The notes under the pieces: generated by a model
Databases searched by the model: none
Seen by the model: the letters and a program-made list of their open reading frames with translations, nothing else
Told to the model about the DNA's origin: nothing
Shown: piece by piece, positions 23,426 to 41,200 of the stretch
Layout of the letters: every line of letters begins with the position of its first letter
Position numbering within the stretch: the first letter of the stretch is position 1
Assembly (NCBI GenBank): GCA_017525225.1
Contig: JAFXTB010000178.1
Coordinates: 9,660 to 73,659, forward strand
Source of the DNA: Kiritimatiellia bacterium
GTDB lineage: Bacteria > Verrucomicrobiota > Kiritimatiellia > RFP12 > UBA1067
Length of the DNA stretch: 64,000 bases
Reading direction: 5' to 3'
Program-made: the position numbers and the translations under genes

Positions 23426-24169
23426 TCATGCCTTGTGGAGAAACGCCTGGTACCTCTCGCACACTCCGGCCACGTCGGAGGTGAACTCCATCTGCTTACC
23501 ATGGTTCAGCCACAATATCTTGTTACACAGCTTCTGCACCTGAACAAGCGAGTGGGAAACCAGTATCGTCGCTACGCCGCTGTGTATGATTTCAAGGAGT
23601 TTCTCCTCGCTCTTCTTGCGGAACTCGACGTCACCCACCGAGAGCACCTCGTCCAGAATAAGAATGTCCGGCCGCACCATGGACGCCACCGAAAACGCCA
23701 AGCGGGCTCTCATCCCCGACGAAAGCTGTCGGAATGGACGGCCCTCAAATTCGCGCAGCCCCGAGAAGTCGATTATCTTATCGTATGCGTCATTCATGAA
23801 CTTCCGCGTATAGCCAAGCATTGCCCCGCGCAGATATGCGTTCTCTTTGACCGTCAAGTCCTTGTCGAATCCAGAGGTCAACTCCAACAGCGCCGCAATC
23901 CTTCCATGCACACGTACCGATCCCTCCACCGGCTCCAAGATACCCGAGACCGCCTTGAGCAGCGTGGACTTCCCTGCCCCATTGGCGCCAATAATTCCGA
24001 GCATGTCACCCCTGTTCAATGCGAACGTGATGCCGCGATCTGCCCAGAACTCCTTCGCGCGATATGTACCTGTCAACTTTCGGATGACGAACTCCTTAAG
24101 GCCAATGCCCTTGAAATCCCCTACCATGTAGCGGATTCCGACACCCTTGAGTTCTACGAGCGTATTCAT
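23426..24169 (-). CDS. Polysaccharide-export ABC transporter ATP-binding protein (Wzt/KpsT/TagH family)
   Basis: Walker A GANGAGKST, signature LSSGMRARL, Walker B ILILDEVLSVGD. Adjacent to an ABC-2 permease. Confidence 0.85.
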   Translation of the reverse strand: MNTLVELKGVGIRYMVGDFKGIGLKEFVIRKLTGTYRAKEFWADRGITFALNRGDMLGIIGANGAGKSTLLKAVSGILEPVEGSVRVHGRIAALLELTSGFDKDLTVKENAYLRGAMLGYTRKFMNDAYDKIIDFSGLREFEGRPFRQLSSGMRARLAFSVASMVRPDILILDEVLSVGDVEFRKKSEEKLLEIIHSGVATILVSHSLVQVQKLCNKILWLNHGKQMEFTSDVAGVCERYQAFLHKA

Positions 24170-24172
24170 TTC

Positions 24173-24994
24173 TTAGACGTAATATAGGAATTTGGTATTG
24201 AACTTCTTGTACATAACACTTCCGACAAAGAGGAAAAACAGCGCCCACCCCGCAAGGATGGCATGGTGTCCCAAAGATGGAAATGCTCCGTCAATTGTGA
24301 CCTTGCGGAAGTATGCAATAAACATGTAGATCGGATTGCACATATACACTCTCTTCCAGCTCTCGGGAAATTTCTCTATGGAATACATCACCGCAGAGCC
24401 ATAGAAGAGAAGCCGGGTGAAGACACTCCAAAGGTAGGCCATGTCGCGAAAAAACACGTATAGTGCCGAAAGGACTAGTCCCAACCCAAGATTGAAAAGC
24501 ATAAGAACTACTATCGGATACAAAAGGAGAAGGAAATGCCATCCGAACCGGATTCCGTCAATCGCGCAGAAGCCAAAGAAGACAGCTAGGATGATCAGGA
24601 AGTTCAAAGTCGTTTGCGCCGTTTTCGCGAAAAGGAAAAGGTACTTGGGCACGTTGACCTTGGTGAATATGCTGGCATTCTCCATCAACGACACCATCCC
24701 CCCGCCCACTGCCTCGTTAAAGTACAGGAAGACCACTTGCCCGCAGAAGAGGTAGATGGTATAGTGGGGAATGGACTTGCCGAAGAATTGTCCAAAAACG
24801 AGTTTGAGCACAAGCAGCAAGAGTAGCGGCGAAAGCACGCTCCATCCCATGCCCAGAACCGTACGCTTGTATTTCTTCTTGAAATCGCGCTTGACCAGTT
24901 CCTCGAACAGGAAACGATGCGCCAAAAACACCCTGACCGCGCGGCGGACAGGTGTCTCATTCAACGGAAGGACTTGTCTCCCAAATACTTTCAT
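24173..24994 (-). CDS. Polysaccharide-export ABC-2 permease (Wzm/KpsM/TagG family)
   Basis: 273 aa with six TM helices. ABC-2 family pattern (VKRDFKKKYKRTVLGMGWSVLSPLL). Lower GC (about 48-50%). Confidence 0.75.
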   Translation of the reverse strand: MKVFGRQVLPLNETPVRRAVRVFLAHRFLFEELVKRDFKKKYKRTVLGMGWSVLSPLLLLLVLKLVFGQFFGKSIPHYTIYLFCGQVVFLYFNEAVGGGMVSLMENASIFTKVNVPKYLFLFAKTAQTTLNFLIILAVFFGFCAIDGIRFGWHFLLLLYPIVVLMLFNLGLGLVLSALYVFFRDMAYLWSVFTRLLFYGSAVMYSIEKFPESWKRVYMCNPIYMFIAYFRKVTIDGAFPSLGHHAILAGWALFFLFVGSVMYKKFNTKFLYYV

Positions 24995-25189
24995 TCTACA
25001 TCCAACAACTATTCCCTCAGCGCTTACTAGTATACACCATCCTTGAGGGTATAGTCAAGCCTGTGGCGTCCGCCGTACCCATTCAGAACAGGACATCGCG
25101 GATGTCGATCACCGCGTTGAAGCCCCCCTCCGCCTCGACAATGGGCGCAAGGTGCCCGCTGCAGACGAGCGCCGTCTTCACGACCTTCC

Positions 25190-25262
25190 CCCTTCCCAAG
25201 TGGGATGCGTACGCGCCTGACCTTCTCGACGTTGTAAACAGGAATTATGACGGAGACTTTCG
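25190..25262 (-). pseudogene. Degenerate stub of a GT2 glycosyltransferase gene (only the first ~16 codons recognisable)
   Basis: Minus-strand translation MSKVSVIIPVYNVEKV is the canonical GT2 N-terminus. After that the frame runs into GC-rich non-GT sequence (RRVRIPLGKGEGREDG...) and stops. No continuation was found in other frames. Confidence 0.45.
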
Positions 25263-25271
25263 ACATGGATG

Positions 25272-26111
25272 TCACACCCCGAAATTCGTGAACTTGATCT
25301 GTCGAACAAGAGCCTTGAAATAATCCCGACTCCATATCTTGAGTTCGGAGATATTCTCGATGAACGGCTCCACGTCTTCGCGCGCGGAATTGAAGTCGAT
25401 CGAGTCAATGCGCGCATCAAACGCGGCGACGACGGCCTCCGGGGTGCTTAGATCCACACCTGGCCCGCTTTCCTTCCCACGTTCCACGAGATGCGTCAAG
25501 TCCAGTTCGGCACCTCGCGAGACATACCAGGCCATGTCATACCAGTCACGGCCCTTCACACGGTTCTTCCACTTCCGGAACAACGCCGCGCTTGCCTTGC
25601 CCGCATAAAGACCGGGAAGGTCGTAGATTCTCACCCAGCACGACGACGGACGGACCAGCAGCTTCATCTCCGTATTGAACCTCGGAGGAGGATCAATATC
25701 CACCTCCAATTTCACCTTGGGGCGCTTCTCCGTCGTGAATCCGATGTCATACACGTCGGACGATTCCTTGAGGAATGCGCTCTCGATTGAATTCGGGCGC
25801 CCCTTTCGCTTCGACTTGATCTCAACTTCCCTGCCGGCAAGCCGGAACTCGTCCTTTACCGCTTCAAAGTAGTCCTCAAATGCAAACGATGGATCCGGGG
25901 CTAGAAGCGAAAAATACATATCCTCGGAGAACCTCTCCAATCCATGAAAAAGATGGAGGCATGTTCCGCCATAGAAAGCGGCCTTGGAGAAGAATCCTCC
26001 GCGGGCCAATCCCGCCAACGCAACCTCCTGCATCACCTCGTAGACGGCATTTTCCTTCTCGTTCACGGACTTGACCTTGTACGCCTCAACCATTTCATCG
26101 AACAATGTCAC
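25272..26111 (-). CDS. Nucleotidyltransferase AbiEii/AbiGii-family toxin-like protein
   Basis: 279 aa. N-terminal region (YEVMQEVALAGLARGGFFSKAAFYGGTCLHLFHGLERFSEDMYF) fits the AbiEii/DUF1814 nucleotidyltransferase fold pattern (GGT...D-x-D-like). ATGA overlap with the upstream small gene. AT-richer than flanks. Confidence 0.65.
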   Translation of the reverse strand: MTLFDEMVEAYKVKSVNEKENAVYEVMQEVALAGLARGGFFSKAAFYGGTCLHLFHGLERFSEDMYFSLLAPDPSFAFEDYFEAVKDEFRLAGREVEIKSKRKGRPNSIESAFLKESSDVYDIGFTTEKRPKVKLEVDIDPPPRFNTEMKLLVRPSSCWVRIYDLPGLYAGKASAALFRKWKNRVKGRDWYDMAWYVSRGAELDLTHLVERGKESGPGVDLSTPEAVVAAFDARIDSIDFNSAREDVEPFIENISELKIWSRDYFKALVRQIKFTNFGV

Positions 26112-26578
26112 GTGAATATCCTTTCCAACGCCTTGAACAGGCCGTACTTGCGTCCTGAAGCCGCATAGGCGGAGAAAACGCCTATGTCGGGATTTTCAAA
26201 TGCATCAAAATCAAATCGCACATCATTCTCCAGATACATGCGCAGCGAACGCGGCGACGAGATGCGAAGCCGAGACCGTGAATCGATAAAGTCGCACAAT
26301 GCCTTCTCCGGTCCCGCGACCATCGCTCCATCAACGCTTCTGACGCCGATGGCAAAGGTCGCCACAGGCACTGTACGGTATACAAAGCGTCCAACAGGCG
26401 TGACGAACCGCTTTCCCCGTGCTGTCACCGCCGAAATCGTTTCCACTACGCGGTCTGGTATCAGACCATATTCCGCCAACATCGTCTCGAAAGAAACATA
26501 TGAGACGGACCGTAAAGCAGATTGGCGACCGTTCAGGCGCGGCCCATGTGTCGAACCCTTTTCAGGGACTGTCCCCAA
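26108..26578 (-). CDS. Putative cognate antitoxin/autoregulator of the AbiEii-like gene (AbiEi-like or DUF6088-like; short form)
   Basis: Positional partner overlapping the toxin start by 4 nt. 124-156 aa depending on start: TTG 26578, or ATG 26482 (MLAEYGLIPDRVVETISAV...). The reading frame opens only at 26623, so no longer N-terminal wHTH domain is possible here. Homology is not verified. Confidence 0.4.
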   Translation of the reverse strand: MGTVPEKGSTHGPRLNGRQSALRSVSYVSFETMLAEYGLIPDRVVETISAVTARGKRFVTPVGRFVYRTVPVATFAIGVRSVDGAMVAGPEKALCDFIDSRSRLRISSPRSLRMYLENDVRFDFDAFENPDIGVFSAYAASGRKYGLFKALERIFT

Positions 26579-26588
26579 GTTATTCCAG

Positions 26589-26663
26589 TTTAGTTGACCC
26601 GTAAGTCCGTATTCTGCGCCACTTTAGGGTCAACTAAATCCTATTTTGCAATTTAGTTGACCC
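26589..26663 (-). promoter_or_regulatory. Triple 12-mer operator-like array TTTAGTTGACCC (26589-26600, direct), GGGTCAACTAAA (26627-26638, inverted; embedded in palindrome TTTAGGGTCAACTAAA) and TTTAGTTGACCC (26652-26663)
   Basis: Exact 12/12 matches read directly from the sequence, 10-85 nt upstream of the antitoxin-like gene start on the minus strand. Confidence 0.5.
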
Positions 26664-26776
26664 ATAACCACAAGGATATGCTGCATGGCGATCTGATCTG
26701 TAGGAACCGTCAATCAAGGGGCAGCCGCCTTTCGCCGCTCAGATCATTGAGCCAATCAACCACCCGGTTTATGATG

Positions 26777-29700
26777 TTATTGGATGAATAAAGCGGCGCC
26801 GTTAGGAGCGATCACCCCTTCCTGAATATCGTACCAATCATCGTCTTCTTCATCGTAATAGCTTCCAGACGGCGTGTATAGGAACTGCAAATCAACCGCC
26901 ATCCCGCCAACAACGAAAGTCGCCAGTGCGCATTTGTCATGGACAAAGCGAACCACGGTCGTCGCACTCACCTTTTTCGAGCCAATCTTGCCCGCCAGTG
27001 TCGCAATACCAGTATCGGAAACTTTAATTGACACAGGGAACGATGTCATGCCATAGACACAATATCTGCAGAAAAGACTGTAATCGCCATTTTCCCTAGC
27101 TACCGCCAATTTCTGCGTCCCCAGCTTGCTCAGCAATTTGGCGATGTGTCCGGCACTTGCATTCAGGTATTTCTTCTTGCTGTTCTTGCCGTATGGATTC
27201 CGCACGGCGTACGCCCAGACGATGTCGGTGCACAACCCAGACGACGGCTCTGGCTGGTAAGAGCCTTCAAGAGCCGCCTCGGTGGCGTCCCACGCCAAGG
27301 ATGGTTTGATCGATATCTTCAGCTTCTTCTTCCAGCTGACAAGAGTGGCACTGTAGACACCATCGTCGTCTATGGAAGACCACTTGCTAGCGGCAAATGT
27401 AGTTGATCCAAGCTTGGCCGAAATCTTGCCGTCGCTCTTGACAACCACCTTGAAGACATGCACTTTATCCGTTATGGCAGTGTAGCGGCGTCCAACATCC
27501 TGATTGTCTCCCTCTTCCGAATCGTCATAACCGCAATCCTCACAGTCATCGTCGTCATAATCGTCATCATCGTCATCGTCAGCATCCCATGGCGTAAATC
27601 CATAATACCCTGATGTATACCCGTAACTATGTGCGGCAATCCATGAACTGTCCTTCGAGGCGAAACCGTTAAACGTTCCGACCACCGCCGAAGGCAGGGC
27701 AACGGCCTTGATCTTGATCTTGAAGGTCCTCGACCATCCCCATTTGTTCGTAAGTTTTATCGCCACGGTGCTCGTACCCGCCTTGCGCGGCACCCCGCTG
27801 ATCTTTCCGCTCTTGTAGGCAAGTCCGCTCGGAAGACCGCTCACCTTGACCGTCGCGGACGAACCGGACACGCCGGACATGCCGGGCGTCGCGGTGAGCG
27901 CGAAAGTCTGCTGTACGCCCACGCGCACGGTCACCGTTGCGCCGGACGACGTCACTGTCGTGGCGTTTTCCGCCGACGTGCCGTTTACGCGCGCCGACAC
28001 GGACACGGTGAATCCGGGATTCTTCGCCACGATCTTGATCGTCTTCTTGGCTGTCCCCTTGGAGTTCTTCGCCGTGATCGTCACCTTGGACGTCCCGGGC
28101 TTCTTCGCCTTGCCGGTTATCTTCCCGCCCGAATACTTGAGCCCGGACGGAAGCCCCTTCACCGTTACGGTCGTCTTCTTGATGGTCGACAGCACTGTGA
28201 TCGGAATGCTGCAGGACTGCCCCGGAATCACTGTATAGGAACTATCGCAGTAGATGGCCGGCTTGGGCTTGGGGGCAGGCAGCGTGCCCGCTAGCTCGGC
28301 AGCCACGCGAAAGCCTAGGTTCTCGTAGGTGTCGGACGGGTATACGGTATCCGAGCCGTCCCAGTACCAATATTTCTTGTCATAGCTCTCGCTCCATGAC
28401 GCACCGCACATCATTTTCGATTCGTCTGCGCTGGAATTCGGCCCGACAGGATCCGTGACCGCCTTCGTGACGTTCCATTCCCAATCCAGAGTCCATTCCG
28501 ACACATTTCCATACATGTCGTAGATTCCCCAGGCGTTCGGCGCGTAGGATCCGACCTTCGTATGTTCGCCGTACCCGCCCTTTCCGTCATTCGCGTTTTC
28601 AGGGATTCGTCCGCACGACGTCACGTTAACGGTGCTCCCGCCGCCTGCGCGGAAGGCATACTCGCCCTGCGCCAGCGTGGGCAGGTCCACCGAAACGCCC
28701 GACCGGGCGCGGAGACGTCCGATGAACGAATTCGCATCGACAGTCCTCACCGCCGGCCAGTTGTATGTCCGCACATTGCCGCGAATGGATTCCCACGAAA
28801 CGCGCTCCACTGGGCGCGTATCTCCCCTGTAGCGCGACGGATTCTGCCCCGTCACCAGTTCGTACTGCTTCTGCGTCACCTCGAATACGCCGATGTAGTA
28901 CGGCTTCGTGATCGAGACCTTGTACGAGCCGATGACGGTCGGCACCTCGTTACCATAATCATCCATATCCCAATCTACATCATCCATCATGAAACTGCCC
29001 GCCTCCACCTTCTTCAGCACCAGTTTGGTCGTCTTGTATTCATCCGTCCAGCCGCCGGCGGGAATGGCATCAAGATATGTAACCGGGTATTTCGACGCGC
29101 TCGCGCCTGTCGAGAGATCGATCACGCAATACGTACCAGATGTGGGAGTTGTCGGTGTCGTGCTGGCGTTCCAGTGGGCGTAGTACGTCACGTTACCGGT
29201 AACCTTCGTGGACGTCGATATCTTCGTACCGCCGCTCGCAGCGGTCCACCACCCGTCAAACGTGTACCCGCTCCGCGTCGGCGTCGGCAGCGTCCCGACC
29301 GCCGAACCGCTGGCGACAGACCGCGTCGTGCCGCCGCATCCCCCGTTCGCGTTGAACGTCACCGTGTAATAATCTCCACTACCAGCCAATGTCACGCCGC
29401 TCGCCGGATCGCCAACAAGCTTGAATGCCGAGGAATCAAAGGATGCATACGAACCTTCTGCAACAGAGAACTCCAATCCGGCTTCGCCCAATCCATTCAC
29501 ATGAAGCAATCTAATACTGTAAATCCCAGCAGACGGAAAGCTTACGGTCATCAAATCTGTACTCATTGCTCCACTGGAAGAAGAATGGAATTCACGAGAA
29601 ACTCCAGTGCCACTAATTGTTGCAGAAAATACATCGTCACATCCACAGGCAAAAGTCCATTCTCCGGCCCGTGGAACATATATTGATGTTGTCGCATCCA

Positions 29701-31705
29701 CAACGAAATAATTACTGCCCCCTCCTGGGAAATCCACCATGTCACTTGAGAATTTTATATCTCTGTAATGTCCCAAGCCATAGGCAAATGCAATCTTATC
29801 ATAAGTTTTCGTCACTGGTTCCCCATTCCAGACGGAATGATCGCCAATTGCTTGTAACGCATAAGAATCTGTTTCCTGTAAGCTTTCACCAAGAATATTT
29901 TCCGTGAGATTGTACTGTGTCACCATCCAAAGCCCATTCGCTGGCGGCGTCGTCCCCGCCGTGCCGTCGTACAACGCCTTAACCTCCGCTGCCGACAACG
30001 CACGGTTGTAGATGCGGAGGTCATCTATACTTCCATCAAAACACCCATATTGTGTCTTACCGAGGGAATAATCACCATTTGAGTCAACACTAAGCATAAT
30101 GCATTTGGTTCGCGAACTACTGAGGCCTTCCCTCACAAACACCCCGTCAAGATAGAGTTTGGGCGCACCATTCTCGGAAACGGAAACGACCGCATGATGC
30201 CAACTAGCATCGATTGCCGTCTCATACTTCAAGACTGCCGCCTTGTAACCGCCTCCATGCTCATAAATGTTCAATCCATTTGACCCAGCCTTCAACCCTA
30301 CACCAACATATCCTGAAAGATAAATGTTCGGCTGAGCCGGATAAACCAAAAAGTTCTTGCCATTATAATCAGTCCCACTCGTCGTTTCGCCTTTCAGTAC
30401 AGTAGTTTCGAATGTCTTAAACCAGCATGAAAAAGTAAAAGTGTCCTTGACTAACAGCAGCTCTGATGTCCCGAGCGCAATGTTATTGTCCAACTGATAT
30501 GCGCCGTTTTCCAGCCCATCATGTCCCACTACACAAGTGAGAGTGCCCTCCACCACCAAATGATACCCGTTCCCGCTCGCATCGTTCGCGTTGCCATCAA
30601 ACGGATAGTACGCAACAAGGCCATCGGTCAATGATCTGCCAGCAGGTGCCGCCCCATACTCATAGCATCCGATATCGACCGTACCGTTGGCGATACGGGC
30701 GTTGCCCGCCAAGTCCTTGTCGCTCGTCACATACGAATTGTCGCCCGCATCGATACACGGCGAACCCGCCGTAAGCCGATAGTCACCGTTCGCCGCATCC
30801 ACGAAGTTGGGAGTTGCACTGATATTGCCAGCCCCAACATTCAATGTCGCAACATTCTTTTTTGTCACGCCACCTTGTACACAGCTATATGAGACTGCGG
30901 CCATCGTACCAGAGCTGTACACACTTGAGAATGCATCTATCTGGCTACCTCCATTGTTCCAGACGATGCAGCCCTTCACTTTAACAGTCGCGCCATTGGC
31001 CAATCCAACACCGCCTTGATACCCAAAGAAATCCGTGGAGTCATTGCCATAGATGGTACAGTTGACCAAAGTCATCTCGCCGTCATCACTCTCGACAAAG
31101 ATCGCTCCACCGCAAGCCCACGCAAAGTTATCGTAAAACAGACAGTTTTCCACAAGTACACTTCCTGAAGCACTTGAAATACCACCTCCAAAAGTGCCTG
31201 AATCTGTACGTGGCGTGCCATGCCCGTTTCCATGTATTATGCAGTTGCGGATTGTGGCGCTTGTACGACAGCGCACGCCGCCGCCATAATAGTCATACCC
31301 GTATGAGGAAGGATTCGGCTCTCCAGTGCCGCCCGTAATCTCAAAACCGTCAATGGTCGCCCCGGTCGCATTCTCCATTATCCTTACAGCAGCATATCCT
31401 GACAGTCCATGTACAGTTGTGTTTTTTGCCCCTGAAGCCGACTTGACTTCAACCCTCCTTGAGATTTCAATCCTTTCATTATACGTCCCTGGTGCAACAA
31501 GAATCGTGTCGCCTGCCGACGAAGCATCAATCGCCGCCTGGATCGTCGCCTTGGCGGAAGATTGGCTCGTGCCGGAGTTGTAGTTCGACCCCGTCGAGCC
31601 GTTTACATACCACGTAGTCGCAGATACCATCATCGGCATCAGCAGCACAGCCACGGTCAACTTTTTCAGCATCAACTGGAATACTTTTGAAAATTCTGTT
31701 TTCAT
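26777..31705 (-). CDS. Giant secreted multi-domain surface protein (1,642 aa): signal peptide; pectin-lyase-like beta-helix; LamG/ConA-like; Listeria-Bacteroides repeat; FGE-sulfatase (SUMF1-like) domain; two Ig-like (dystroglycan-type) domains; poly-Asp linker; C-terminal domain
   Basis: Parallel beta-helix repeats NCIIHGN / NCLFYDN / NCTIYGN. LamG-like LVAYYPFDGNANDASGNGYHL. List-Bact repeat SGYTFDGWWTAASGGTKIST. FGE-like VDLPTLAQGEYAFRAGG and GIYDMYGNVSEWTLDW. Ig-like GLPSGLKYSGGKITGKAKKPGTSKVTITAKN, twice. Linker DADDDDDDDYDDDDCEDCGYDD. Confidence 0.8.
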   Translation of the reverse strand: MKTEFSKVFQLMLKKLTVAVLLMPMMVSATTWYVNGSTGSNYNSGTSQSSAKATIQAAIDASSAGDTILVAPGTYNERIEISRRVEVKSASGAKNTTVHGLSGYAAVRIMENATGATIDGFEITGGTGEPNPSSYGYDYYGGGVRCRTSATIRNCIIHGNGHGTPRTDSGTFGGGISSASGSVLVENCLFYDNFAWACGGAIFVESDDGEMTLVNCTIYGNDSTDFFGYQGGVGLANGATVKVKGCIVWNNGGSQIDAFSSVYSSGTMAAVSYSCVQGGVTKKNVATLNVGAGNISATPNFVDAANGDYRLTAGSPCIDAGDNSYVTSDKDLAGNARIANGTVDIGCYEYGAAPAGRSLTDGLVAYYPFDGNANDASGNGYHLVVEGTLTCVVGHDGLENGAYQLDNNIALGTSELLLVKDTFTFSCWFKTFETTVLKGETTSGTDYNGKNFLVYPAQPNIYLSGYVGVGLKAGSNGLNIYEHGGGYKAAVLKYETAIDASWHHAVVSVSENGAPKLYLDGVFVREGLSSSRTKCIMLSVDSNGDYSLGKTQYGCFDGSIDDLRIYNRALSAAEVKALYDGTAGTTPPANGLWMVTQYNLTENILGESLQETDSYALQAIGDHSVWNGEPVTKTYDKIAFAYGLGHYRDIKFSSDMVDFPGGGSNYFVVDATTSIYVPRAGEWTFACGCDDVFSATISGTGVSREFHSSSSGAMSTDLMTVSFPSAGIYSIRLLHVNGLGEAGLEFSVAEGSYASFDSSAFKLVGDPASGVTLAGSGDYYTVTFNANGGCGGTTRSVASGSAVGTLPTPTRSGYTFDGWWTAASGGTKISTSTKVTGNVTYYAHWNASTTPTTPTSGTYCVIDLSTGASASKYPVTYLDAIPAGGWTDEYKTTKLVLKKVEAGSFMMDDVDWDMDDYGNEVPTVIGSYKVSITKPYYIGVFEVTQKQYELVTGQNPSRYRGDTRPVERVSWESIRGNVRTYNWPAVRTVDANSFIGRLRARSGVSVDLPTLAQGEYAFRAGGGSTVNVTSCGRIPENANDGKGGYGEHTKVGSYAPNAWGIYDMYGNVSEWTLDWEWNVTKAVTDPVGPNSSADESKMMCGASWSESYDKKYWYWDGSDTVYPSDTYENLGFRVAAELAGTLPAPKPKPAIYCDSSYTVIPGQSCSIPITVLSTIKKTTVTVKGLPSGLKYSGGKITGKAKKPGTSKVTITAKNSKGTAKKTIKIVAKNPGFTVSVSARVNGTSAENATTVTSSGATVTVRVGVQQTFALTATPGMSGVSGSSATVKVSGLPSGLAYKSGKISGVPRKAGTSTVAIKLTNKWGWSRTFKIKIKAVALPSAVVGTFNGFASKDSSWIAAHSYGYTSGYYGFTPWDADDDDDDDYDDDDCEDCGYDDSEEGDNQDVGRRYTAITDKVHVFKVVVKSDGKISAKLGSTTFAASKWSSIDDDGVYSATLVSWKKKLKISIKPSLAWDATEAALEGSYQPEPSSGLCTDIVWAYAVRNPYGKNSKKKYLNASAGHIAKLLSKLGTQKLAVARENGDYSLFCRYCVYGMTSFPVSIKVSDTGIATLAGKIGSKKVSATTVVRFVHDKCALATFVVGGMAVDLQFLYTPSGSYYDEEDDDWYDIQEGVIAPNGAALFIQ

Positions 31706-31849
31706 CTTCCGTTCTCCTGAGGTAGTTGCAAAACCCCCTCTTTCGCGCCATTCGCGGGCTAGGCCACACAGCCTGACGAAGCCCGCAAAACCACCGCTGC
31801 ACGACTGAAAGGTTCAGCGCATCAATTATGCCAAAATCTCACCTCGGAC

Positions 31850-33070
31850 GCAAGGGGGAAAATGAAGTTTTTCATTTATGGGGAGGGGTAATTGCATTTT
31901 TATCCGTTTTATCCTTGATTTTGTTATGTTATATGCTATACTATAAGCATGAAATCACAAAGCAACCGGCCAGACATCTCCGAAATGCCGCCATACAGGC
32001 TTGGCAGACACTGGATCACAATCCAGGCATACCTCATACCCGGCCTCGAGGACGACATCGGGGAACTCAGCGAGGAGCTGAAGAAGTTCATGGGGATATG
32101 CGAACTGCTCATCGACGAGAAGATGTTCGCCAAGTACCGATGGTGCGGGAACGGGCGTCCGCCGAGCAGCCGCATCAGCCTGTTCAAGGCGTACATCCTC
32201 AAGGCGATGCGCAACTACCCCTACACCAAGACGCTGATCGCAGCCGTGAAGGAATCGCCCACTGTCAGACGACTTTGCGGCTGGGAGTCCGTCGCCGATG
32301 TTCCGGACAAGTCCCAGTTCTCGCGGACGTTCAAGGCGTTCGCCAAGGACGATGTCGGCTCGAAGGCACTTGCCGCATGCCTCACGGAGCATCTCGGCCG
32401 CAACGGCGTCATGCACGGAAGCCACGACTCCTCGGAGATCGAGGCGAGGGAGAAAGGCGTGACGTGCAAGAGAGACGCAAGGGATGCCGAACGTCCGGCA
32501 GAGACGCGCATCGAACGCCAGCAGAGGCAGGACGAGGCGACGAACTTCGCGGAGCTGCCCACGGACTGCGACTGGGGCTGCAAGCGTAACAGCAAGGGCA
32601 AGACAGAGAAGTGGAAAGGCTACAAGCTGCATCTGGTCGTCGGAGACGGGGACATCCCGCTGTGCGCGTTCCTCTCGTCGGCAAGCATGCACGACTCGCA
32701 GGCCATGATCCCGATGATGCAGCGGACGAGCGCGTCGTTCGACTACTTCTACGACCTCGCCGACGCCGCATACGATGCGGCGGGAACGAGGGCGATGTCG
32801 CAGAGCCTGAACCACGTCCCGCTCATCGACGGCAATCCCAGGCGCGGGGAGAAGCAGATCGACGACATAGGCGCGAAGTTCGTCAACATCGTCCCGGCCG
32901 AAGCCGTCCACTACCGCATCCGCACCGGCGTGGAGCGCGTGTTCGGGATGCTCAAGGACTCGCACGGCGGCTGCATGGTCAGGGTACGCGGGCACGAGAA
33001 GGTGTTCCTCCACCTGATGTTCTGCATCCTGGCGAGCGCGGGGAAGGAGACGCGTCCGATCGTCTGATCC
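31850..33070 (+). mobile_element. IS5-family (DDE_Tnp_1, DUF772 N-domain) insertion sequence; termini approximate, inverted repeats not identified
   Basis: Carries the transposase ORF 31949-33067. AT-rich left flank 31850-31948. The right side abuts or overlaps wzx-derived sequence at about 33016. Confidence 0.55.
31949..33067 (+). CDS. IS5-family DDE transposase
   Basis: 372 aa. KGKTEKWKGYKLHLVVGDGDIPLCAFLSSASMHDSQ matches the IS5/IS4 DDE_Tnp_1 signature (compare IS5 ...GKKGKQWYFGMKAHIGVD...ANEHD). Second Asp in DLADAAYD, Glu in RTGVERVFGMLKD. The N-terminal region resembles the InsH/DUF772 domain. Confidence 0.8.
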   Translation: MKSQSNRPDISEMPPYRLGRHWITIQAYLIPGLEDDIGELSEELKKFMGICELLIDEKMFAKYRWCGNGRPPSSRISLFKAYILKAMRNYPYTKTLIAAVKESPTVRRLCGWESVADVPDKSQFSRTFKAFAKDDVGSKALAACLTEHLGRNGVMHGSHDSSEIEAREKGVTCKRDARDAERPAETRIERQQRQDEATNFAELPTDCDWGCKRNSKGKTEKWKGYKLHLVVGDGDIPLCAFLSSASMHDSQAMIPMMQRTSASFDYFYDLADAAYDAAGTRAMSQSLNHVPLIDGNPRRGEKQIDDIGAKFVNIVPAEAVHYRIRTGVERVFGMLKDSHGGCMVRVRGHEKVFLHLMFCILASAGKETRPIV

Positions 33071-33846
33071 ACCGAATTCATCAGGACGCCCGCCACATGG
33101 TTGCCCTTGTGGACGAATGCGAGATCGGCCCTGGTGAAGCATTTTCCCACGACCGCGGCATAGAGGTTGCTGTAGAGCTTGGATACCATCAGCCCTGCCG
33201 TCATCTTCCATCCGAAGGAGAAGAGCCTTCCCGCCGCCGCCCAGGAGAACACAAGCGCAGGACGCCACCGCACGACAAGCTGCCGCGCGATCGTCCCCGC
33301 AAGCCCCCCCGCCACGGACGCCCATACGAGCGACCAGGCGCCAAAGCCGGCGAACGCGAGCGATATGCCGGTAATGTATCTTGCGCCAACCCCGACCCAG
33401 CTGATGCGGAAGCTCAGCTTGAAAAGCATCTTGCGATTCAGTTCCGCAGTCTGCACCCCGTTCACCGCATGGAAGAGAACGGTGATCGCGAGAATACGCA
33501 GCATTGGCACGAGCGAGGGAATCGAATAGAAGCTTGCGACGGCCGGCGCGGCAAGGAAAAGCACGGTGTAGAGGACGGCGGCCACGGTCACGCTGATGTA
33601 GAAGACCGTGTTGAAGTCCGTCTGCGAGGCATCCTTCTTCTGGACCAGCGCATTTCCGAATCCAACGTCGGTGAGTATGTTGGATATCGAGATGAAAACG
33701 GAAAGAAGCGCTACCGTGCCGTAGTCGTCGGGAGTGAGGAGACGGGCAAGGACGAGCGTCACCACGAAGTGCGCCAGCTGGATGCCGAACTTCTCCATCA
33801 GCACCCAGAAGACGCCCCGCGCGACCTTGTCCGTCAGCTTCCCCAC
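33016..33846 (-). pseudogene. Wzx-type polysaccharide flippase (PST/MOP family), 3'-truncated (about 270 of an expected about 480 codons) at the IS junction
   Basis: N-terminus MGKLTDKVARGVFWVLMEKFGIQLAHFVVTLVLARLLTPDDYGTVALLSVFISISNILTDVGFGNALVQKK is a typical Wzx start. Hydrophobic helices continue to ...IGRVSFPALARMQNI. Translation then runs into antisense transposase sequence. No C-terminal half was found on the other side of the IS. Confidence 0.55.
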
Positions 33847-33865
33847 CGCAGGACGTTATCGCGGC

Positions 33866-34855
33866 CTATACGCCCGATGGCGGATAGAACCGCTTGCGGG
33901 CGTCCGCAACGATGTCGATCGCCTTGTTCTGCCTGGCGTCGTTTGACGGCTTGCACATCATCCACGGCGCCATGAGGAATCCCTTGAGGCGCGACGGATC
34001 GATATGCTTGCGGCAGAACTCCACCAGCCCCGGGAAGTTCTCGTCGCAGGCCCACACGCTTCCGCACGGGAGCTGGTCGAACCCGGCCTTGTCCAGCGCG
34101 ATGAACGTCTCGAGGTGTATCTTGCGCTGCGGCGGGATCGTCTCGAAGTCGAACCACTGCCGGTAGTACCAGTTGCTCTGCAGCAGGACCTTGGGGCAGC
34201 GGCGCAGATATTCGTCGCGATGGCGCCAGCAGTAGTCGCTCCAGGCCATCGGGCGCATGCCCGCGTCCTCTACGGTCTTGATGAACCACAGGAAGTCGTG
34301 CCACCACAGTTCGCCGTTGCGCACGATCGCCAGCTCGTTCATCCGCTGGTTGCCGAAATCCTCCTCGTCGTACCCGATGTGGAGGAAACGCGGATGGTCG
34401 AACACCTCGGCGACGTCGCGGATGAGATCGGCGCAGACCTTGTAGTACGTGGGCGTGGATACCATGCGCTCGTACTCGCCCAGCCACGTATCGTGGCATG
34501 CCGAGAAGTTCAGCTTGGGGATCGGCTCCAGGCCGCGGGAGCGGAGCCTGGCAAGCTCGGCCCTGAAGCGGTCCACATCCCAGCTGCCCTTGACGGCCAG
34601 CTCGGGATGGCTGGGATAGATGAGCGCCTCGCCCACGTCTATCATGATCATGTTCAGGCCCTTGTCGGCGGCATGGTCCGTCACCACGCGCCAGGAATTC
34701 GGATCGCAGCGAACATGGTCCGCCACGGACGTGCCCGACAGATAGTCTTCGCTCTTGCCCGGCGGGATGTTGAACGCCCGCTCGCGCGGCGTGTTGTGCC
34801 ACATGTTGTATCCGAAGTGGAGCAGGTCGCCCCATATCAGCCCGTTCTTCTCCAT
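33866..34855 (-). CDS. Hypothetical protein, possible TIM-barrel glycosidase-like (HIGYDEE motif reminiscent of GH20 H-x-G-G-D-E)
   Basis: About 330 aa. Motifs MIMIDVGEAL and LHIGYDEEDFGNQ. A weak by-eye call only; start taken at MEKNGLIWGD. Confidence 0.35.
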   Translation of the reverse strand: MEKNGLIWGDLLHFGYNMWHNTPRERAFNIPPGKSEDYLSGTSVADHVRCDPNSWRVVTDHAADKGLNMIMIDVGEALIYPSHPELAVKGSWDVDRFRAELARLRSRGLEPIPKLNFSACHDTWLGEYERMVSTPTYYKVCADLIRDVAEVFDHPRFLHIGYDEEDFGNQRMNELAIVRNGELWWHDFLWFIKTVEDAGMRPMAWSDYCWRHRDEYLRRCPKVLLQSNWYYRQWFDFETIPPQRKIHLETFIALDKAGFDQLPCGSVWACDENFPGLVEFCRKHIDPSRLKGFLMAPWMMCKPSNDARQNKAIDIVADARKRFYPPSGV

Positions 34856-34941
34856 CGCAGTTGCTCCTTTTTTCTCTGACAACGTTCCTACCTCCGGCGC
34901 CTGTACGCCGACAGGCGATATTATAGCACATTTCCGCCGAT

Positions 34942-37900
34942 TCAGCGCGCAGGAATCGCAGTGCCGTAGCGCTTCACGAAATCGATGCGCGCGAACGCCT
35001 TGTCGGGCTCGTCGCAGGCAAACGACGCCTTCTTCGCTCCGGATAGCGCCGCGAACGGCTCGATCTCGCCAGTCCTGGCGATGCCGGCGTCGGCACCACG
35101 CCGACGCAGCTGCCAGCGTCTGCCATCGCGGCAGGTGAGATACTCCTTCGGGCCGAGCGCGAACGGGAAGTTGCGCGTCTCGTCGCCCACGGAGACCTTG
35201 AACGGGGCGGTCGGGCCGTACACCTCGAAGCCCACAGTCGCGGATTCGCCCGGACGCGCCACCAGCTCGCCCAGATCGTCAAAGCCGCTTGCAGGCGCGT
35301 ACCAGCGCGGCTCTACGGCCTCGTAGGCAAGCCTTGGCTCGGAGCGTGCCGTCATTCCGGGCTTGAGCGCATCGATCTTCTCCCTAAGCGCGAAGGCCGT
35401 CACACGGACGCGCGCAAACGCATCCGAGGAGGTCGTAGCCGAAAAGGCGAAAGCGTTCGCGCCCGGCTTTAGAGAGGGCGTCTCGCCGCGCGCCCGTTCG
35501 ATAGGCCGGCCCATGCGGTCATAGCGCGTCCACCACCCGTTCTCGAACTCCGCGAAATTCCTGGGCGCCATCTTGAACGGGATGTGGAAATCGGCGCCGC
35601 CAACCGAAACGACGGCCCCCTTCGCCATCAGTACGCCGCCCCTGACCGGCAGCATCCTTACGGCGCCGACCTCAACGCACGTCTTCCCGCCCGCAGGTAT
35701 CTCGTTAATGTAGAGGTTGACGGAGGAGACGTTCTTGACGCTGACGCGCGAAAGCGGATAGTCGATCGCCCCGCCCCGCATGTACGGCCAGACATGGTCG
35801 TCGTAGTTCGAATCGCGCTCGCGCAGGCAGAACTCGAAGTAGCGCCAGCCCGTGAAGTCGAGCTTCGCGTAGTGCTCGGACCGGCCCGAGGAATGTTCGC
35901 GCGGGCACTCCAGCTGCACGTTGAGAAGCGCACCCGAGCCATCGCCCTTCACCCACACGCCAAAGGCGTGGTGCGTATCGGGCAGGACGAAATACGGCGC
36001 CTTGTAGGTCTGGGAGACGCGGCTCCACGCGCCCGTGGGCGTTGCGCTGGAGTTCGTCGCCTCGATCCGCACGACGGGGCCGCGCTCGGCGTCGGACGCG
36101 GCCGTCTTCGCCACGGTGACGCCCTTCGCCGCCTTCGCCTCGAACTCCGCCGCCTTCGTCGGATCGAGGATCGTCCGCGCCTTGGGATGGTCGAACCTCT
36201 CGGCGCACTCGAGCATCTCGACGCGCAGCGCGAGCGGCGCAGCGCCATCGGAATCCACGGTCCACTTCGATAGGTCGGCCGATGCGACGCGGTGCTGCGC
36301 GCATACAACCCGCTGCGCGCGCCAGACGCCGTCCGCATCCTGCCGGAGGCGGTACTCCTCGCGCGGACGGCGGAAGCGCGCAAGGGCGTCGTCGGTGAAG
36401 GCCCGCGCCACGCGGAAGCGCTCCCACCAGCCCAGCACGGTCAGATAGCGTACGACGGCGCTCGGCATGCTGTACAGCGGCACGTAGGCGTTGCCAGGAT
36501 CAACCGACATCGCGGTGTCGAACCCGGCGCACATGCGGCCAAGGTACTCATGGTCGTCGACGAAGTATCCGCTCGAGCGCGGATTGTCGAGAAGCGTGCA
36601 CCACCAGCCCATGTTGAGACGCAGGAAGTTTGCCTTCGGACCGTATGCCATGTAGCGCCCGAACCGGCGGTCGAGCGAACGCTTCGGCCCCCAGTAGACG
36701 TAGTCGTTGGCGCCTATGCGCGAATGCCACCACCACGTGGACGGTATCCACAGCGAGTCCTCGTACATGGGCGTCTTGCCGCTGTCGGCCGCAGCCTGCA
36801 GGATCATGCGCGCGAACTTGTCGGTCTTGCGCGGATCGCACGCGAGACCGTCGAGACCGTCAAGGTAGATCTGGTCGAAGCCGCACACGCCGAAGAGATC
36901 GCCCTGTATCTTCGCCATCTCCGCGCCGACGGGGCTGTCGGCGTCAGCAAGGAGCGAATAGAACCTCTGGCGCGGATATACGACGGGCTCCCCTGCGGCG
37001 TGCGGCTCCACCACCGTGCCGTACGCGCCGCGCTTTATGCCGGTGAAGGCGTAGGGGGGCGTCTGCGTGAAGCCGGTGTACTGGATCAGCTCGCCGCCGA
37101 TGCGCACCACGTTGCCGTTGCCGAGGTATGTCATCACTATGTCGTGCTGCGACCACGGCTTCTCCTTCACGACAAGCCGGTCCGTGCCCTTCTTATTGCC
37201 GTCAAGGGCCTCCGCAAGCGTGTAGCGCCGCATCTCCATAGTACCGTCGGTGCAGCGCGGCGCAATCCACGGATCCTTGAAGCTGATGCTCGCGGTGAGC
37301 GTGTGCACGTCGCACTTGAGACCCGCCGCATGTGCCTTGTCGGTGAGCGCCTTGAGGCCCGCCTTGCCTGTGGGGAAGAGGTTGGTGCGCACTTCGTAGT
37401 GCCCGAGCGACTGCCAGCACGAATCCACATGCAGCGTGCCGAAGCCGCCACGCAGGCACAGTTCCACCCAGTCGTCGCCCGTCGCGTCGGCAAGCCCGTA
37501 GCACATGAGGTACGAGCGGCGGCAGTCCTCGGACCCGAGCGACCATGCGCCGCCGTTCTGCGAATGGGGGATTCCCGAGTCGGCCGTCATGGCCTTCATG
37601 GCGTCAAGGAAGCGACCGCGAGGCCCGGCCACTACGGCGAAGCGCACCGCATCTAGCGCCACCTCGCCCGTGGAGGCGGTGCAGAGGATGCCTTCCGCCA
37701 TGTTGGCGATGAACACCCCGCCCTCGTTGTAGATACGCACGCATACCGCGGACGCATCGTCCGAAGCGGCGTTCACCAGCCTGCCCATGTACTTCGTGCA
37801 GACCGGCCTTATGCGCCCCAGCCTGAGCTGCCGGACATCCCGCACGTTGCAGCGAACCACCTCGAAGCGCCAGCCGCCCGCGAACCGCCGTACCGCGATC

Positions 37901-38184
37901 ACCACCTCGCCCGCATCGCCGAAGCCGAACACGAGCCTGCCCTCGGCGTCCTGCGCAAGCGAGACGGGCCTTATCTCGCGCCGCGCCCCTCCCTGCGGCA
38001 CGGCAACCGCCACCACGAACTCGGAAGGCTTCGCGACAAGCTCGCGCCCGGTGTCCCTTTCACGGATCGACACCACCTTGCCGGTGTCGTCGAATTCCAT
38101 GCGCACGAGCTCGTTTTCGAGCGACGGCGCCGCCAATAGCATACCTGCCGCCGCGATGGCGGCAAGGAAGATTCTTCCCTTCAT
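34942..38184 (-). CDS. Large secreted hypothetical protein (1,080 aa), glycosidase-like central region
   Basis: Signal peptide MKGRIFLAAIAAAGMLLAAPS. The long ORF has coding-like composition. The first about 25 nt of the gene and its upstream 31-nt leader are near-identical to those of the adjacent 1,266-aa gene. Confidence 0.6.
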   Translation of the reverse strand: MKGRIFLAAIAAAGMLLAAPSLENELVRMEFDDTGKVVSIRERDTGRELVAKPSEFVVAVAVPQGGARREIRPVSLAQDAEGRLVFGFGDAGEVVIAVRRFAGGWRFEVVRCNVRDVRQLRLGRIRPVCTKYMGRLVNAASDDASAVCVRIYNEGGVFIANMAEGILCTASTGEVALDAVRFAVVAGPRGRFLDAMKAMTADSGIPHSQNGGAWSLGSEDCRRSYLMCYGLADATGDDWVELCLRGGFGTLHVDSCWQSLGHYEVRTNLFPTGKAGLKALTDKAHAAGLKCDVHTLTASISFKDPWIAPRCTDGTMEMRRYTLAEALDGNKKGTDRLVVKEKPWSQHDIVMTYLGNGNVVRIGGELIQYTGFTQTPPYAFTGIKRGAYGTVVEPHAAGEPVVYPRQRFYSLLADADSPVGAEMAKIQGDLFGVCGFDQIYLDGLDGLACDPRKTDKFARMILQAAADSGKTPMYEDSLWIPSTWWWHSRIGANDYVYWGPKRSLDRRFGRYMAYGPKANFLRLNMGWWCTLLDNPRSSGYFVDDHEYLGRMCAGFDTAMSVDPGNAYVPLYSMPSAVVRYLTVLGWWERFRVARAFTDDALARFRRPREEYRLRQDADGVWRAQRVVCAQHRVASADLSKWTVDSDGAAPLALRVEMLECAERFDHPKARTILDPTKAAEFEAKAAKGVTVAKTAASDAERGPVVRIEATNSSATPTGAWSRVSQTYKAPYFVLPDTHHAFGVWVKGDGSGALLNVQLECPREHSSGRSEHYAKLDFTGWRYFEFCLRERDSNYDDHVWPYMRGGAIDYPLSRVSVKNVSSVNLYINEIPAGGKTCVEVGAVRMLPVRGGVLMAKGAVVSVGGADFHIPFKMAPRNFAEFENGWWTRYDRMGRPIERARGETPSLKPGANAFAFSATTSSDAFARVRVTAFALREKIDALKPGMTARSEPRLAYEAVEPRWYAPASGFDDLGELVARPGESATVGFEVYGPTAPFKVSVGDETRNFPFALGPKEYLTCRDGRRWQLRRRGADAGIARTGEIEPFAALSGAKKASFACDEPDKAFARIDFVKRYGTAIPAR

Positions 38185-38215: not shown

Positions 38216-41200
38216 TCATCTGAAGATTATCACGGTACCATTCACATAGTAGAGGCACAGATCGCCGTCCTCCAGCTTCAGGTTGGCGCTCCAGCCGGGC
38301 CTGAGCGTCGAGGTGTCAACCGACCAACCTGCGAGCGACTGGATATTCGCACCGGCAACAAGGACGTGCCGGCCGACGCGAAGCGCAGCGGGCATCCCGG
38401 TAAAGTGCACCGTGCCGCCGCGCGACATGTCAAAGGAGCCGGTGAACGCGACAGGCGTCGTGGAGCCGTCCGCCGCCACGGCCACATCCAGCGACGCGTT
38501 CGCGGCAAGGATCACAGAACCCTGGACCGTGCCGCCGCCAAGCGTGAGCGAAGACACCGTGACAGGTGCGCCGCCCTCGACGACCAGCGTTCCGCCGCCG
38601 GCGACGGTCAGTGCGCCTAGCGTCGCCGGACGGAATCCGGGCGTGTCCTCGTTGAACCATTTCTTGCGGAGATATGCCTCGATCTCGTACACACGGTTGG
38701 AAGGCAGGGCGTTGTCGCAGATTATCATCTCTGCGAACTGGCCGCCGCCCGTGAGATCGTACGAGCCGCTGTTGCGTGAAGACATCAGGCCATCAAGGCC
38801 GAAACCGTACAGGCTCGACATGGAAACAAGATCGTATGTTCCCGAAAGCCCCGTCGTCGTGGGATTGCAGGCCACCCCATTCAAGTTGAACACGTACGAC
38901 AGCAGCTGGTCGATGCCCATGTATGTCGCGTCGGTACGAATTATGAAGTCTGTCGCCAGGCTGCCGCAATACTCACCTGCACGCGTGATTCCGTAGCCTT
39001 TGTTCATGACCGTGTTGAGCGTCCCCAGAAGAGTGCCGCCACCGTTGGAGGAACCCCACACCGCGAACACGGTATGGTGGCCCTTCGTCTGGTCGATGCC
39101 CATGCTCGAAGAGTTTTTCTTCGATGCGTCGGAGTCCTTGGGATGGGCGTAGACCCTGCCAAAGTCCAGCACGGATCGTCCGTTCAAGGCGTTTTCCGCG
39201 ATGAACGGAAGATTCGTGGATTCGGAACGGAAGAGCGTGGCGTCATGTGCCGTTCCGCTTCCTTTCACGTCCTTCCAGCGCGTGACGGTGTTGACGCCGC
39301 GTACAGCATCGTATGAATAGTCGAAGTTGTCTAGGGAGGATGCATCGTAGCGTGCGAACACGGCATCGTTGGTCGTGAACTGCGGCGGAATGGTCATATC
39401 ACGCGAAACGATGCGCAGCGTGCCGCCCGAGACGGCCAGGGCGGCAGCCGGCACATACGCTTCACCCGCGACCTGAAGCGTGCCGCCACCCGTCTTGGCG
39501 ATCACAGCGGAAGGCAGGATTTCGGTCACGACGGCCGCACTGCCCTCGGGGATGTTCACGATGCCGCCCGAAACCTTGCCGAGCGTATCGCTGTATTTCG
39601 CCGCCGATTCGGACACGTCGGAACGAAGCCACTTGCGCATCAGGTAGCGCGTCACCTGCAGTCTCTCCACCTCGGTAAGCACGTTCGTATAGACTATGAT
39701 CTCGCCAACCGGCTTCTTCACCGTTGCCACGATGCCTTGGTTGCCGTAGGTGAGGTTGAAGAAGAATGCGTCGGCGGCCGGAGGCTTCACACCGGACGCA
39801 GTCTCCGCAAGCGACAACGCGGCCACCACCGGCACGAAACCGTCCGTGGTGATGCTCGTAGTGTACGGGAACTTCCCGGAAGTGGGGATGGCGTCGCGTC
39901 CGTTGACGCGGAACAATCCCTTGGTGATCTCAAGTACACTGCCGGCCCAGGAGAAATACGGTTGTGTGGACGAGTATCGTCCGAACAGGGTGATGTTTTC
40001 CCTGCCGCCGGCGGCGGTGAGGCGCCCACCCGACGTGGCGCCGAGGAAAGGAGCCGCGCCACTGTTGCAGCCATATACCTGGAACACCTCGCGCATGCCG
40101 GCCACCGGCCGGCTCCACACGAGTTCCTCCGTCAGCGCGACTGTGGGGGGTTGCTGGTAGCTCGCAGAGTAATAGCCGTTTGACGTCACCCCCTGCCCGT
40201 TTCCGTTGAAGTACACGTAATGCAGATCCTTCTCGCTGTTGTACTTCAATGCCGGACAGTAGGCGTCCTTGCTAGCGTTCGTGGCGAACATGTAACCGTC
40301 TCCATCGCCCGTCTTACGGATGTCGTCGGCGCGCGCAACGCCCTTCGCGCCACCATCCAGATCCACAAGCGTCAATTTGTTCGTATTCGAGAAGTCCACC
40401 CAGAACGCGGGATTTCCAGGCACCCCAGGCGCGGGCAGTTCCATCGAGATATCGGATTCGCCGCCACCAATCACCACTTCAACTCCGGGCGATATGGCAA
40501 TCCCCGTAAGATCTACGCGCCCAGGCACGTAGAGCCGTCCGGCGCCGGTGAGCGCCGCGCCAGGCTCGATCGAAAAGGCGAAGTTGGCCCTGAAACCCTG
40601 CGCAGGCACGCGGAATGTCGCGCCCGCCGCGATCGAGAGCGTCCCGATTTCGGCGATGTCCGCCCCCGCCGCGTCGTTTACGCCGAACGTGCCCTCCTTG
40701 ACGATTATCGAACCGGTGTTGCCGGCGGAATTCGTCATGCCTGCAAGAAGAGTACCACTCCCCGCCTTCGTTATCTTACCCTTCAGATCGTACAGCTGCT
40801 GGATGACGGCCTGCATGTCGCCTGTGACGGAAAGCCGCGACTCGGCGGTGGCGGTAGGCTGGTCCACAAGGGCGTAGGGAAGGCCAGGCCCTGCTTCGTT
40901 GGGCGAGCTGGAGAACAGGATGTCGCATGTCCCGAGCCGGAATGCCGCACTGAGCCGGACACTGCCGTTTTTTACGGTGTTTTGTTCGTGTATGACGAAC
41001 AGGCCGGGCTTGTAGGACGACGACGTACCGATGGTCGTGTGACGCTTCCATGTCCCTCCGTCGAGAGCAAGCGGGAAGATGTTGAACTTGTCCACCTCCA
41101 CTACGTATTCATCCTCGTCGCGGTGCTTGTTGACAAAGAAATTGAAATTATGGTCCACGGAGTTATTATGCCCGAACGTCCCGATCTCGCGCCTGGCGTG

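Follow-up and report, generated by a model that had tools for sequence, protein, structure and literature searches.

The joint between a one-ended IS1182-like element and a wzx fragment in a Kiritimatiellia bacterium points to short-homology deletion

Introduction

How did the transposase gene of an insertion sequence (IS) and a polysaccharide flippase gene come to end inside one another? This question is raised by a 64-kb stretch of DNA from a Kiritimatiellia bacterium, which we analysed as a whole and refer to as the window. In its middle, a plus-strand transposase ORF of 372 aa (31949-33067) and a minus-strand wzx-like ORF of 311 aa (32911-33846), the N-terminal part of a Wzx/MOP flippase, overlap by 157 nt on opposite strands, and each terminates in the other's antisense DNA. 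An earlier note on this DNA read the arrangement as an IS5-family insertion that truncated wzx and was accompanied by a deletion, and it offered two alternatives for the transposase C-terminus: either the right terminus of the IS lies inside the last transposase codons, or the transposase borrowed its stop codon from flanking DNA. Here, we locate the joint between the two genes to within four bases, define what is missing on either side of it, and consider how it arose. We find that IS insertion, followed by a short-homology deletion reaching from inside the IS to the middle of wzx, is the best explanation of the locus and very probably the correct one.

Results

Both ORFs are chimeras

The transposase ORF encodes the Pfam domains DUF772 (PF05598, E=4e-11) and DDE_Tnp_1 (PF01609, E=1.5e-12), and its Y-2-R-3-E-6-K signature, read from the alignment, is complete (Y322-R325-E329-K336). 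Its nearest relatives (P0002-P0011, 80-89% aa identity) are 376 aa long and end in ...HLMFGILVIAAQKLIGIAQSIC, whereas the window protein ends in ...HLMF followed by CILASAGKETRPIV and departs from the relatives after F358 (position 33022). Residues 1-358 are native; residues 359-372, with the sequence CILASAGKETRPIV, and the stop codon are read from the antisense strand of wzx (33023-33067), and the native last 18 codons are missing. The stop at 33067 is where the earlier note had placed it, and of the roughly 17 terminal codons that it assigned to wzx DNA, the alien origin stands while the count falls to 14. Its second alternative is thus the one that holds, since the last 14 codons and the stop are wzx-derived. 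The loss includes a C-terminal HLMFG(I/V)L segment that is kept even in ISUnCu17, at 36% overall identity. The window transposase retains its full catalytic core, and it has probably lost its activity. A promoter-like site on the plus strand (31915-31942; TTGATT-16-TATACT with a TG extension) lies 6 nt before its ATG, and the counterpart of this site in the full-length copy L001 reads TTGACT-17-TATAAT.

The identification of the minus-strand ORF as a truncated wzx, already proposed from the letters alone, is borne out by domain models and by alignment to an intact ortholog. Polysacc_synt_3 (PF13440) matches residues 32-276 with E=3e-72, covering profile positions 1-245 of 293; Polysacc_synt (PF01943) matches with E=1e-28; and NCBIfam MOP flippase models (478-492 positions) also match, to about position 280 only (coverage 282 of 478). 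More than 100 flippase relatives have full lengths of 497-510 aa. The nearest intact Wzx, P0122 on contig L010, is 499 aa long and shares 95% aa and 92.7% nt identity with the window ORF, and its gene aligns to window positions 33845-33019 only, ending at codon N276. The wzx remnant thus spans 33019-33846 on the minus strand, with a GTG start at 33846 and codons 1-276 of an expected 499, and it is followed by an alien tail of 35 codons and a stop, read from transposase-gene DNA in antisense (32911-33018). The early end of wzx homology had been recognised previously and put at about 33016; the alignment to the intact L010 gene moves it to 33019. A complete Wzx comprises two transmembrane lobes in about 500 aa; the homology of the window protein ends at residue 276 of 499. 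Because the lost C-terminal part comprises 223 residues (45%) with at least five hydrophobic segments, we predict that the flippase fragment is non-functional.

The insertion sequence retains one end

Independent full-length copies of the element, compared with one another, are about 1,634 bp long (L001, 1533-3166) and are flanked by 17-bp inverted repeats (IRs), GAGGCAGTTGCAAAACC. In the window, the repeat at 31719-31735 (plus strand; GAGGTAGTTGCAAAACC) matches both ends of these full-length copies and is the sole match to the IR in the 64 kb, which sets the start of the element at 31719 rather than at about 31850, as had been thought. The same edge is given by L019, a copy in a rumen MAG with 92-94% nt identity, whose alignment to the window begins exactly at 31719. 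At the other end, six copies (L001, L002, L003, L005, L006 and L007) align at about 90% nt identity up to 33022 and show none beyond.

What is kept is therefore an IS1182-like remnant of about 1,304 bp (31719-33022, plus strand), from which the right-hand ~335 bp are gone. In full copies, this part contains the right IR, a conserved 58-aa antisense ORF and the last 18 codons for the transposase. BLAST of the 64-kb window for the IS 3' part and the 58-aa ORF returns nothing, no right IR is present in the window with 3 mismatches allowed (nor within 33000-33100), and the window contains no second copy of the IS. The missing right IR, last ~335 bp and 58-aa ORF together define the window element as a one-ended remnant of 1,304 bp. 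The earlier note reported no terminal inverted repeats at all; this is correct for the right end and is superseded for the left, and the comparison with other copies, from which both termini were hoped for, fixes only the left one because the right one is missing. An inverted-repeat search inside 31600-33400 finds no flanking IR pair. The window IR is recognisable only through comparison with other copies. With a single terminal repeat, the window copy is, judged from its structure, an immobile, one-ended element that cannot be mobilised, whatever the state of its transposase.

The joint lies in short homology shared by both parents

A three-way alignment, in which the window is set against the IS (L001, L005 and L004) and the reverse complement of the intact L010 wzx, resolves the recombination joint to 33019-33022. 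IS-specific bases end at 33018, wzx-specific bases begin at 33023, and the four bases between them, GTTC, are common to both parents. The parental match extends somewhat further around the joint, to 10 of 12 positions and to 22 of 31 positions in a 31-nt patch (71% identical). Among random position pairs, a 10/12 match occurs at a frequency of 9.5e-5, and a 22/31 match was seen in 0 of 200,000 trials (<5e-6). The joint corresponds to IS position ~1299 of 1634 and falls inside transposase codon 358.

Since the joint lies inside short shared homology and not at a terminal repeat, it points to a scar of short-homology illegitimate recombination rather than to an end made by transposase. The first of the two alternatives offered earlier, an IS right terminus inside the transposase codons, does not survive this comparison, as full-length relatives run on for about 335 bp to a clear right IR. 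Nor was wzx truncated by the insertion itself: the joint is no IS terminus, and a later recombination removed the right end of the IS as well. The suggestion that a deletion was involved is upheld, in that the right ~335 bp of the IS and the 3' 45% of wzx are both gone.

These features also bear on a reading in which the IS entered wzx directly and a transposase-mediated adjacent deletion followed, or in which the IS is complete and ends inside the transposase codons. Deletions adjacent to IS elements are reported to be common (PMC11708052). Such deletions begin at an intact IS terminus, whereas here the joint lies inside the transposase gene, the terminus has been lost along with ~335 bp and 18 conserved codons, and the sequence at the joint is unlike the IR; for a complete IS, every full-length relative would have to be explained, as each extends to a right IR. 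We consider either version of this reading hardly credible, and retain short-homology recombination as the source of the joint.

The joint recurs in independent assemblies

IS elements are classic points of breakage and mis-joining in metagenome assemblies, and the joint could in principle be a chimera of an IS contig with an unrelated wzx contig. Three recorded contigs encode precisely this 311-aa chimeric protein. One of them, L008, derives from a different sample, matches the window at 99.985% identity over 12.9 kb and contains the identical joint; another, L009, comes from a third sample and carries the identical joint with 15 differences over 5.2 kb. The L009 contig ends inside the IS, and 12 of its 15 differences cluster near that end, which might be taken to favour mis-assembly and is also what would be expected if the sample holds further IS copies. 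The three assemblies derive from different samples within one study and were produced by one pipeline. The identical joint in assemblies from different samples argues against an assembly artefact, and because exact identity between the parents spans just 4 bases at the joint (10/12 around it), far below any assembler k-mer, a k-mer assembler would have had no reason to create it. An assembly chimera is accordingly a very improbable account of the joint.

A proposed history of the locus

We propose a history in two steps. In the first, an IS1182-like element would have inserted so that 13 nt separated its left end from the ATG of the neighbouring giant gene (described below). At about 1.63 kb, it would have been bounded by 17-bp terminal repeats and would have encoded a 376-aa DDE transposase and, towards the right end, a small antisense ORF. 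In the second, RecA-independent short-homology recombination would have joined IS position ~1299 to wzx codon 276, so that a single deletion took out the last ~335 bp of the IS together with the final 223 codons of wzx and whatever lay in between. After this deletion, each ORF would read the other's antisense strand up to a chance stop. Because we found no 'before' state of the strain, we can only infer the order of events and the size of the deleted interval.

The gene order of relatives gives some indication of what has changed. In every relative with an intact wzx, an FrhB-like/pyruvyl-transferase gene comes next, its start overlapping the wzx stop, and it is followed by capsule-synthesis and glycosyltransferase genes. 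In the window, by contrast, the IS remnant comes after the wzx fragment, and the giant gene after that. Beyond the giant gene, the minus strand carries genes for an AbiEii toxin (25272-26111), an ABC-2 permease (24173-24994) and a GT2-FrhB fusion (21814-23403), with more glycosyltransferases and a pyruvyl transferase further on; these genes are only ~28% identical to those after wzx in the relatives. An ABC-transporter-type polysaccharide cluster is found downstream of the locus. Contig L010 cannot reveal what was deleted, since it has only the 5' 827 nt of wzx in common with the window, and the flanking genes differ on both sides.

The deletion could alternatively be only apparent: an inversion or some other rearrangement would have produced this joint along with a second one that unites the missing halves elsewhere in the genome. 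We have nothing positive in favour of this; the window reaches only ~32 kb to each side, and a reciprocal product lying outside it would leave the same local picture. Within the 64 kb, neither missing part has left any trace: BLAST finds no wzx 3' half anywhere in the window, in line with the earlier failure to find one there, and none of the genes that lie downstream of wzx in L010. Moreover, since wzx and the giant gene have the same orientation, a simple deletion is sufficient. We regard an inversion or similar rearrangement as quite improbable, and a single deletion following IS insertion as the preferred account.

The element is IS1182-like

The earlier assignment to the IS5 family is imprecise: the DDE_Tnp_1 and DUF772 domains are shared with that family, but the IS5 models fail and the nearest annotated relatives belong to the IS1182 family. 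The best NCBIfam model is IS1182 (NF033551), with 92 bits against a cut-off of 270 that is not reached, and the IS5 models all score below their cut-offs as well (NF033581, 69/140; NF033580, 37/110; NF033579, 22/140; NF033578, 15/275). A tblastn search of a plasmid collection gives full-length relatives annotated only as IS1182 family or ISUnCu17 (32-37% identity, 94-97% coverage), with no IS5-annotated relative among the plasmid matches; a BLASTP comparison with ISUnCu17 gives E=1e-76. Given an IS1182 model as the best match, IS1182-annotated relatives and ISUnCu17-like IRs, we class the element as an undescribed IS1182-like (ISUnCu17-like) IS, and not as IS5 proper. No target duplications or direct repeats are seen around L001, L002 and L004, which are three complete copies only, with no empty sites for comparison.

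An outward promoter-like motif faces a giant gene

Beside the left end of the IS lies a minus-strand gene for a giant surface protein of secreted type (26777-31705; 1,642 aa), in which beta-helix, Laminin_G_3, Listeria-Bacteroides repeat and FGE-sulfatase domains are recognised. Its start region (31703-31718) comprises an ATG at 31705-31703 and an AGGAG Shine-Dalgarno sequence, and only 13 nt, read directly, separate this ATG from the left IR, where a gap of about 240 bp had been reported. The true start of the giant gene could also be 31672, since the first codon of a paralog, L015, corresponds to M12. We found no ortholog of the giant gene that would show its native upstream region: the best relative, P0241/L015 (78% nt), is paralog-like and has an unrelated upstream region, and a JGI metagenome scan gave relatives at no more than 46% identity.

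Within the IS, a sigma-70-like promoter motif on the minus strand faces outward toward the giant gene (31825-31853; TTGCGT, 17 nt, (TGg)CATAAT). All 10 copies of the element, representing 8 distinct sequences, contain TTGC[A/G]N and nAnnnT separated by exactly 17 nt, at 88-107 nt from the left end, and the 17-nt spacer sequences diverge widely among the copies. Conserved hexamers at a fixed spacing, with divergent spacers between them, suggest a functional outward promoter. Conservation of the motif is confined to a close clade (~71-95% aa identity to the window); in a more distant relative, the P0047 type (L032-L041; 48% identity), both the -10 element and the start-codon-adjacent pattern are missing.

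The left end of the IS also tends to lie close to gene starts. In 5 of 9 independent copies with a left flank, a long outward-facing ORF has its start codon at a distance of 10-28 nt from this end. These are the window copy (13 nt; 1,642 aa), L004 (19-28 nt; at least 193 aa, running off the contig), L017 (10 nt; 231 aa), L018 (28 nt; 847 aa) and L019 (27 nt; at least 914 aa, running off the contig). All of them but L004 are defective, transposition-dead remnants that have kept their left end. L042, L044 and L016 do not show a left end just before a start codon, and the L001 copy sits within a different IS. With these exceptions among the 9 copies, and with the relative at 48% identity, start-adjacency is a tendency (5/9) and not a rule.

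The conserved outward motif and the start-adjacent copies make the motif a candidate promoter, and they make an influence of the IS on giant-gene expression plausible, as the earlier note had supposed. A scan for consensus terminators gives only weak intragenic matches in the stretch from the wzx remnant to the giant gene, so giant-gene transcription could instead come from read-through of the wzx operon; Rfam identifies no known RNA family in 31400-34000. That the left-end motif, or wzx-operon read-through, now drives the giant gene is a possibility that we regard as less likely than not.

Discussion

Neither decayed IS copies nor scars of short-homology deletion are rare, and our overall assessment is that this locus represents the ordinary decay of a new IS1182-like element, with nothing unexpected for specialists. 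Its immediate consequence is for annotation: the two ORFs are pseudogene chimeras, formed from a one-ended IS remnant and a wzx fragment, and should not be recorded as a 372-aa transposase and a 311-aa flippase. The scar is in addition a clean natural case of a short-homology deletion that took both an IS end and part of a polysaccharide locus. The locus has probably lost a Wzx-dependent polymer.

The IS clade is common in ruminant-gut Kiritimatiellae-type assemblies, and its outward motif and frequent position before gene starts could matter for surface-protein expression. In a more far-reaching model, the clade would act as a portable promoter, the window remnant would have been kept for driving the giant gene (perhaps together with wzx read-through), and the deletion would be a selected switch of surface structures in a ruminant-gut Kiritimatiellae lineage, which also abolished the Wzx-dependent polysaccharide. 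We regard this combination as unlikely. The portable-promoter reading is the only part of our findings that could be of wider interest if confirmed.

Outward promoters carried by IS elements are known, as in ISAba1 upstream of blaOXA or ampC and in IS10 pOUT. The window motif resembles these in forming a conserved -35/-10 pair near one IS end, directed outward, with the IS directly upstream of a gene; it differs in being a candidate promoter, limited to a close clade. Inactivation of a surface-polysaccharide locus by a mobile element likewise has a familiar counterpart in E. coli K-12, which is rough through an IS5 insertion in wbbL (rfb-50). There, an intact IS sits in the gene, whereas in the window parts of IS and gene alike were lost to a secondary short-homology deletion.

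IS5 and IS1182 are sister groups, and the window element shares with the IS5 family a DDE_Tnp_1 domain with the Y-2-R-3-E-6-K signature and an N-terminal DUF772 domain. It differs from that family in scoring below the NCBIfam cut-offs. No 3-4-bp target duplication is visible around the three complete window-clade copies, and none is reported for IS1272, an IS1182 family member (PMC5678879). The closest named relative is ISUnCu17 of Aeromonas caviae pKAM643_2 (WP_031943491.1), whose transposase is 389 aa long compared with 376 aa in the window clade and is 36% identical end to end. The two share the Pfam pair DUF772 and DDE_Tnp_1, and the ISUnCu17 terminal repeats, GAGCCTCTTGCAAAA, resemble the GAGGCAGTTGCAAAACC of the window clade. 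They are set apart by an identity of only 35-37% and by source, the window-clade copies coming from ruminant-gut Kiritimatiellae-type contigs, and the window copy itself, unlike ISUnCu17, is a one-ended remnant. The conserved 58-aa antisense ORF and the outward promoter-like motif are features of the window-clade element.

Decay of the IS1182-like element

Decay of this IS1182-like insertion sequence is common. Copies in Kiritimatiellae and Lentisphaerae-type MAGs have lost about 350-560 bp internally while the two termini, or no less than the left-hand 580 bp, survive, as in the database contigs L017 (2783-3850), L018 (2778-3920), L019 (2772-3904) and L020 (1-177). Further database proteins, such as P0040 (271 aa) and P0078/L017 (380 aa), join the N-terminal part of the transposase (74-94% identical) to unrelated sequence, which in P0040 includes an AraC-type HTH domain; chimeric ORFs arising from broken copies are therefore not specific to the window.

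Full-length copies conserve a 55-58-aa ORF that runs antisense to the transposase gene and overlaps its stop codon (minus strand of L004, 1937-2113; L005, 1190-1366; L042, 2637-2804; and L043, 2828-2995). The core of this small ORF, YRLGSHWQTIQRSLFPEWERE, resembles transposase residues 16-37 (12/22 identical, pair E=6e-7), and it could be either a regulator or the relic of an inverted duplication. It is missing from the window copy, which lost it through its deletion.

Gene context of the window copy

The remnant lies at the edge of a block of lower G+C (49-59%, window 24000-31999) that holds the giant surface-protein gene, followed by AbiEii and ABC-2 genes, while the adjoining wzx-side region reaches 60-67% (32000-38000). 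This contrast, together with the position of the remnant, suggests that the block may be a horizontally acquired segment. The giant protein itself combines an unusual mix of domains (beta-helix, Laminin_G_3, Listeria-Bacteroides repeat and FGE-sulfatase) and carries a strongly acidic run, DADDDDDDDYDDDDCEDCGYDDSEEGD, around residue 1480 (window about 27200-27300).

Upstream of wzx lie four co-oriented minus-strand ORFs of 338 aa (33866-34882), 1080 aa (34942-38184), 1266 aa (38216-42016) and 1260 aa (42048-45830). A Pfam scan of the first three returned no match. Across about 1.6 kb of DNA, the genes of 1266 and 1260 aa share about 75% identity and are thus tandem paralogs, and the 1080-aa gene is represented by a 1091-aa variant in L009, the contig from another sample that has the same IS-wzx joint. 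Elsewhere in the window, a 529-aa ORF (21814-23403, minus strand) fuses a GT2 glycosyltransferase domain with 4Fe-4S and FrhB_FdhB domains, whereas in relatives the FrhB-like module forms a fusion with a pyruvyl transferase.

Signals and surroundings of the element ends

The stretch that separates the left repeat from the outward promoter motif (window 31737-31800 and its equivalents in alignment A4) folds into a hairpin at a constant position in every copy, but the stem sequence differs among copies: the window has AGGC/GCCT, L001 has GCAAGC/GCTTGC and L004 has CAAGTC/GACTTG, for instance. These stem differences look like covariation, and the hairpin matched no Rfam family. Downstream, a transposase promoter-like site places its -10 element just 6-7 nt ahead of the ATG, both in the window (31915-31949) and in other copies (L001, about 1722-1758); given this spacing, the transposase mRNA may be leaderless or nearly so.

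At the opposite end, an ATG-started ORF begins 2 nt past the right repeat in two copies (at L004 2213-2218 and L017 3850-3855); it is 351 aa long in L004 and 96 aa long in L017. In L004 the element almost wholly fills the space between two divergent genes, an arrangement reminiscent of the structure-replacing insertion described for IS1272.
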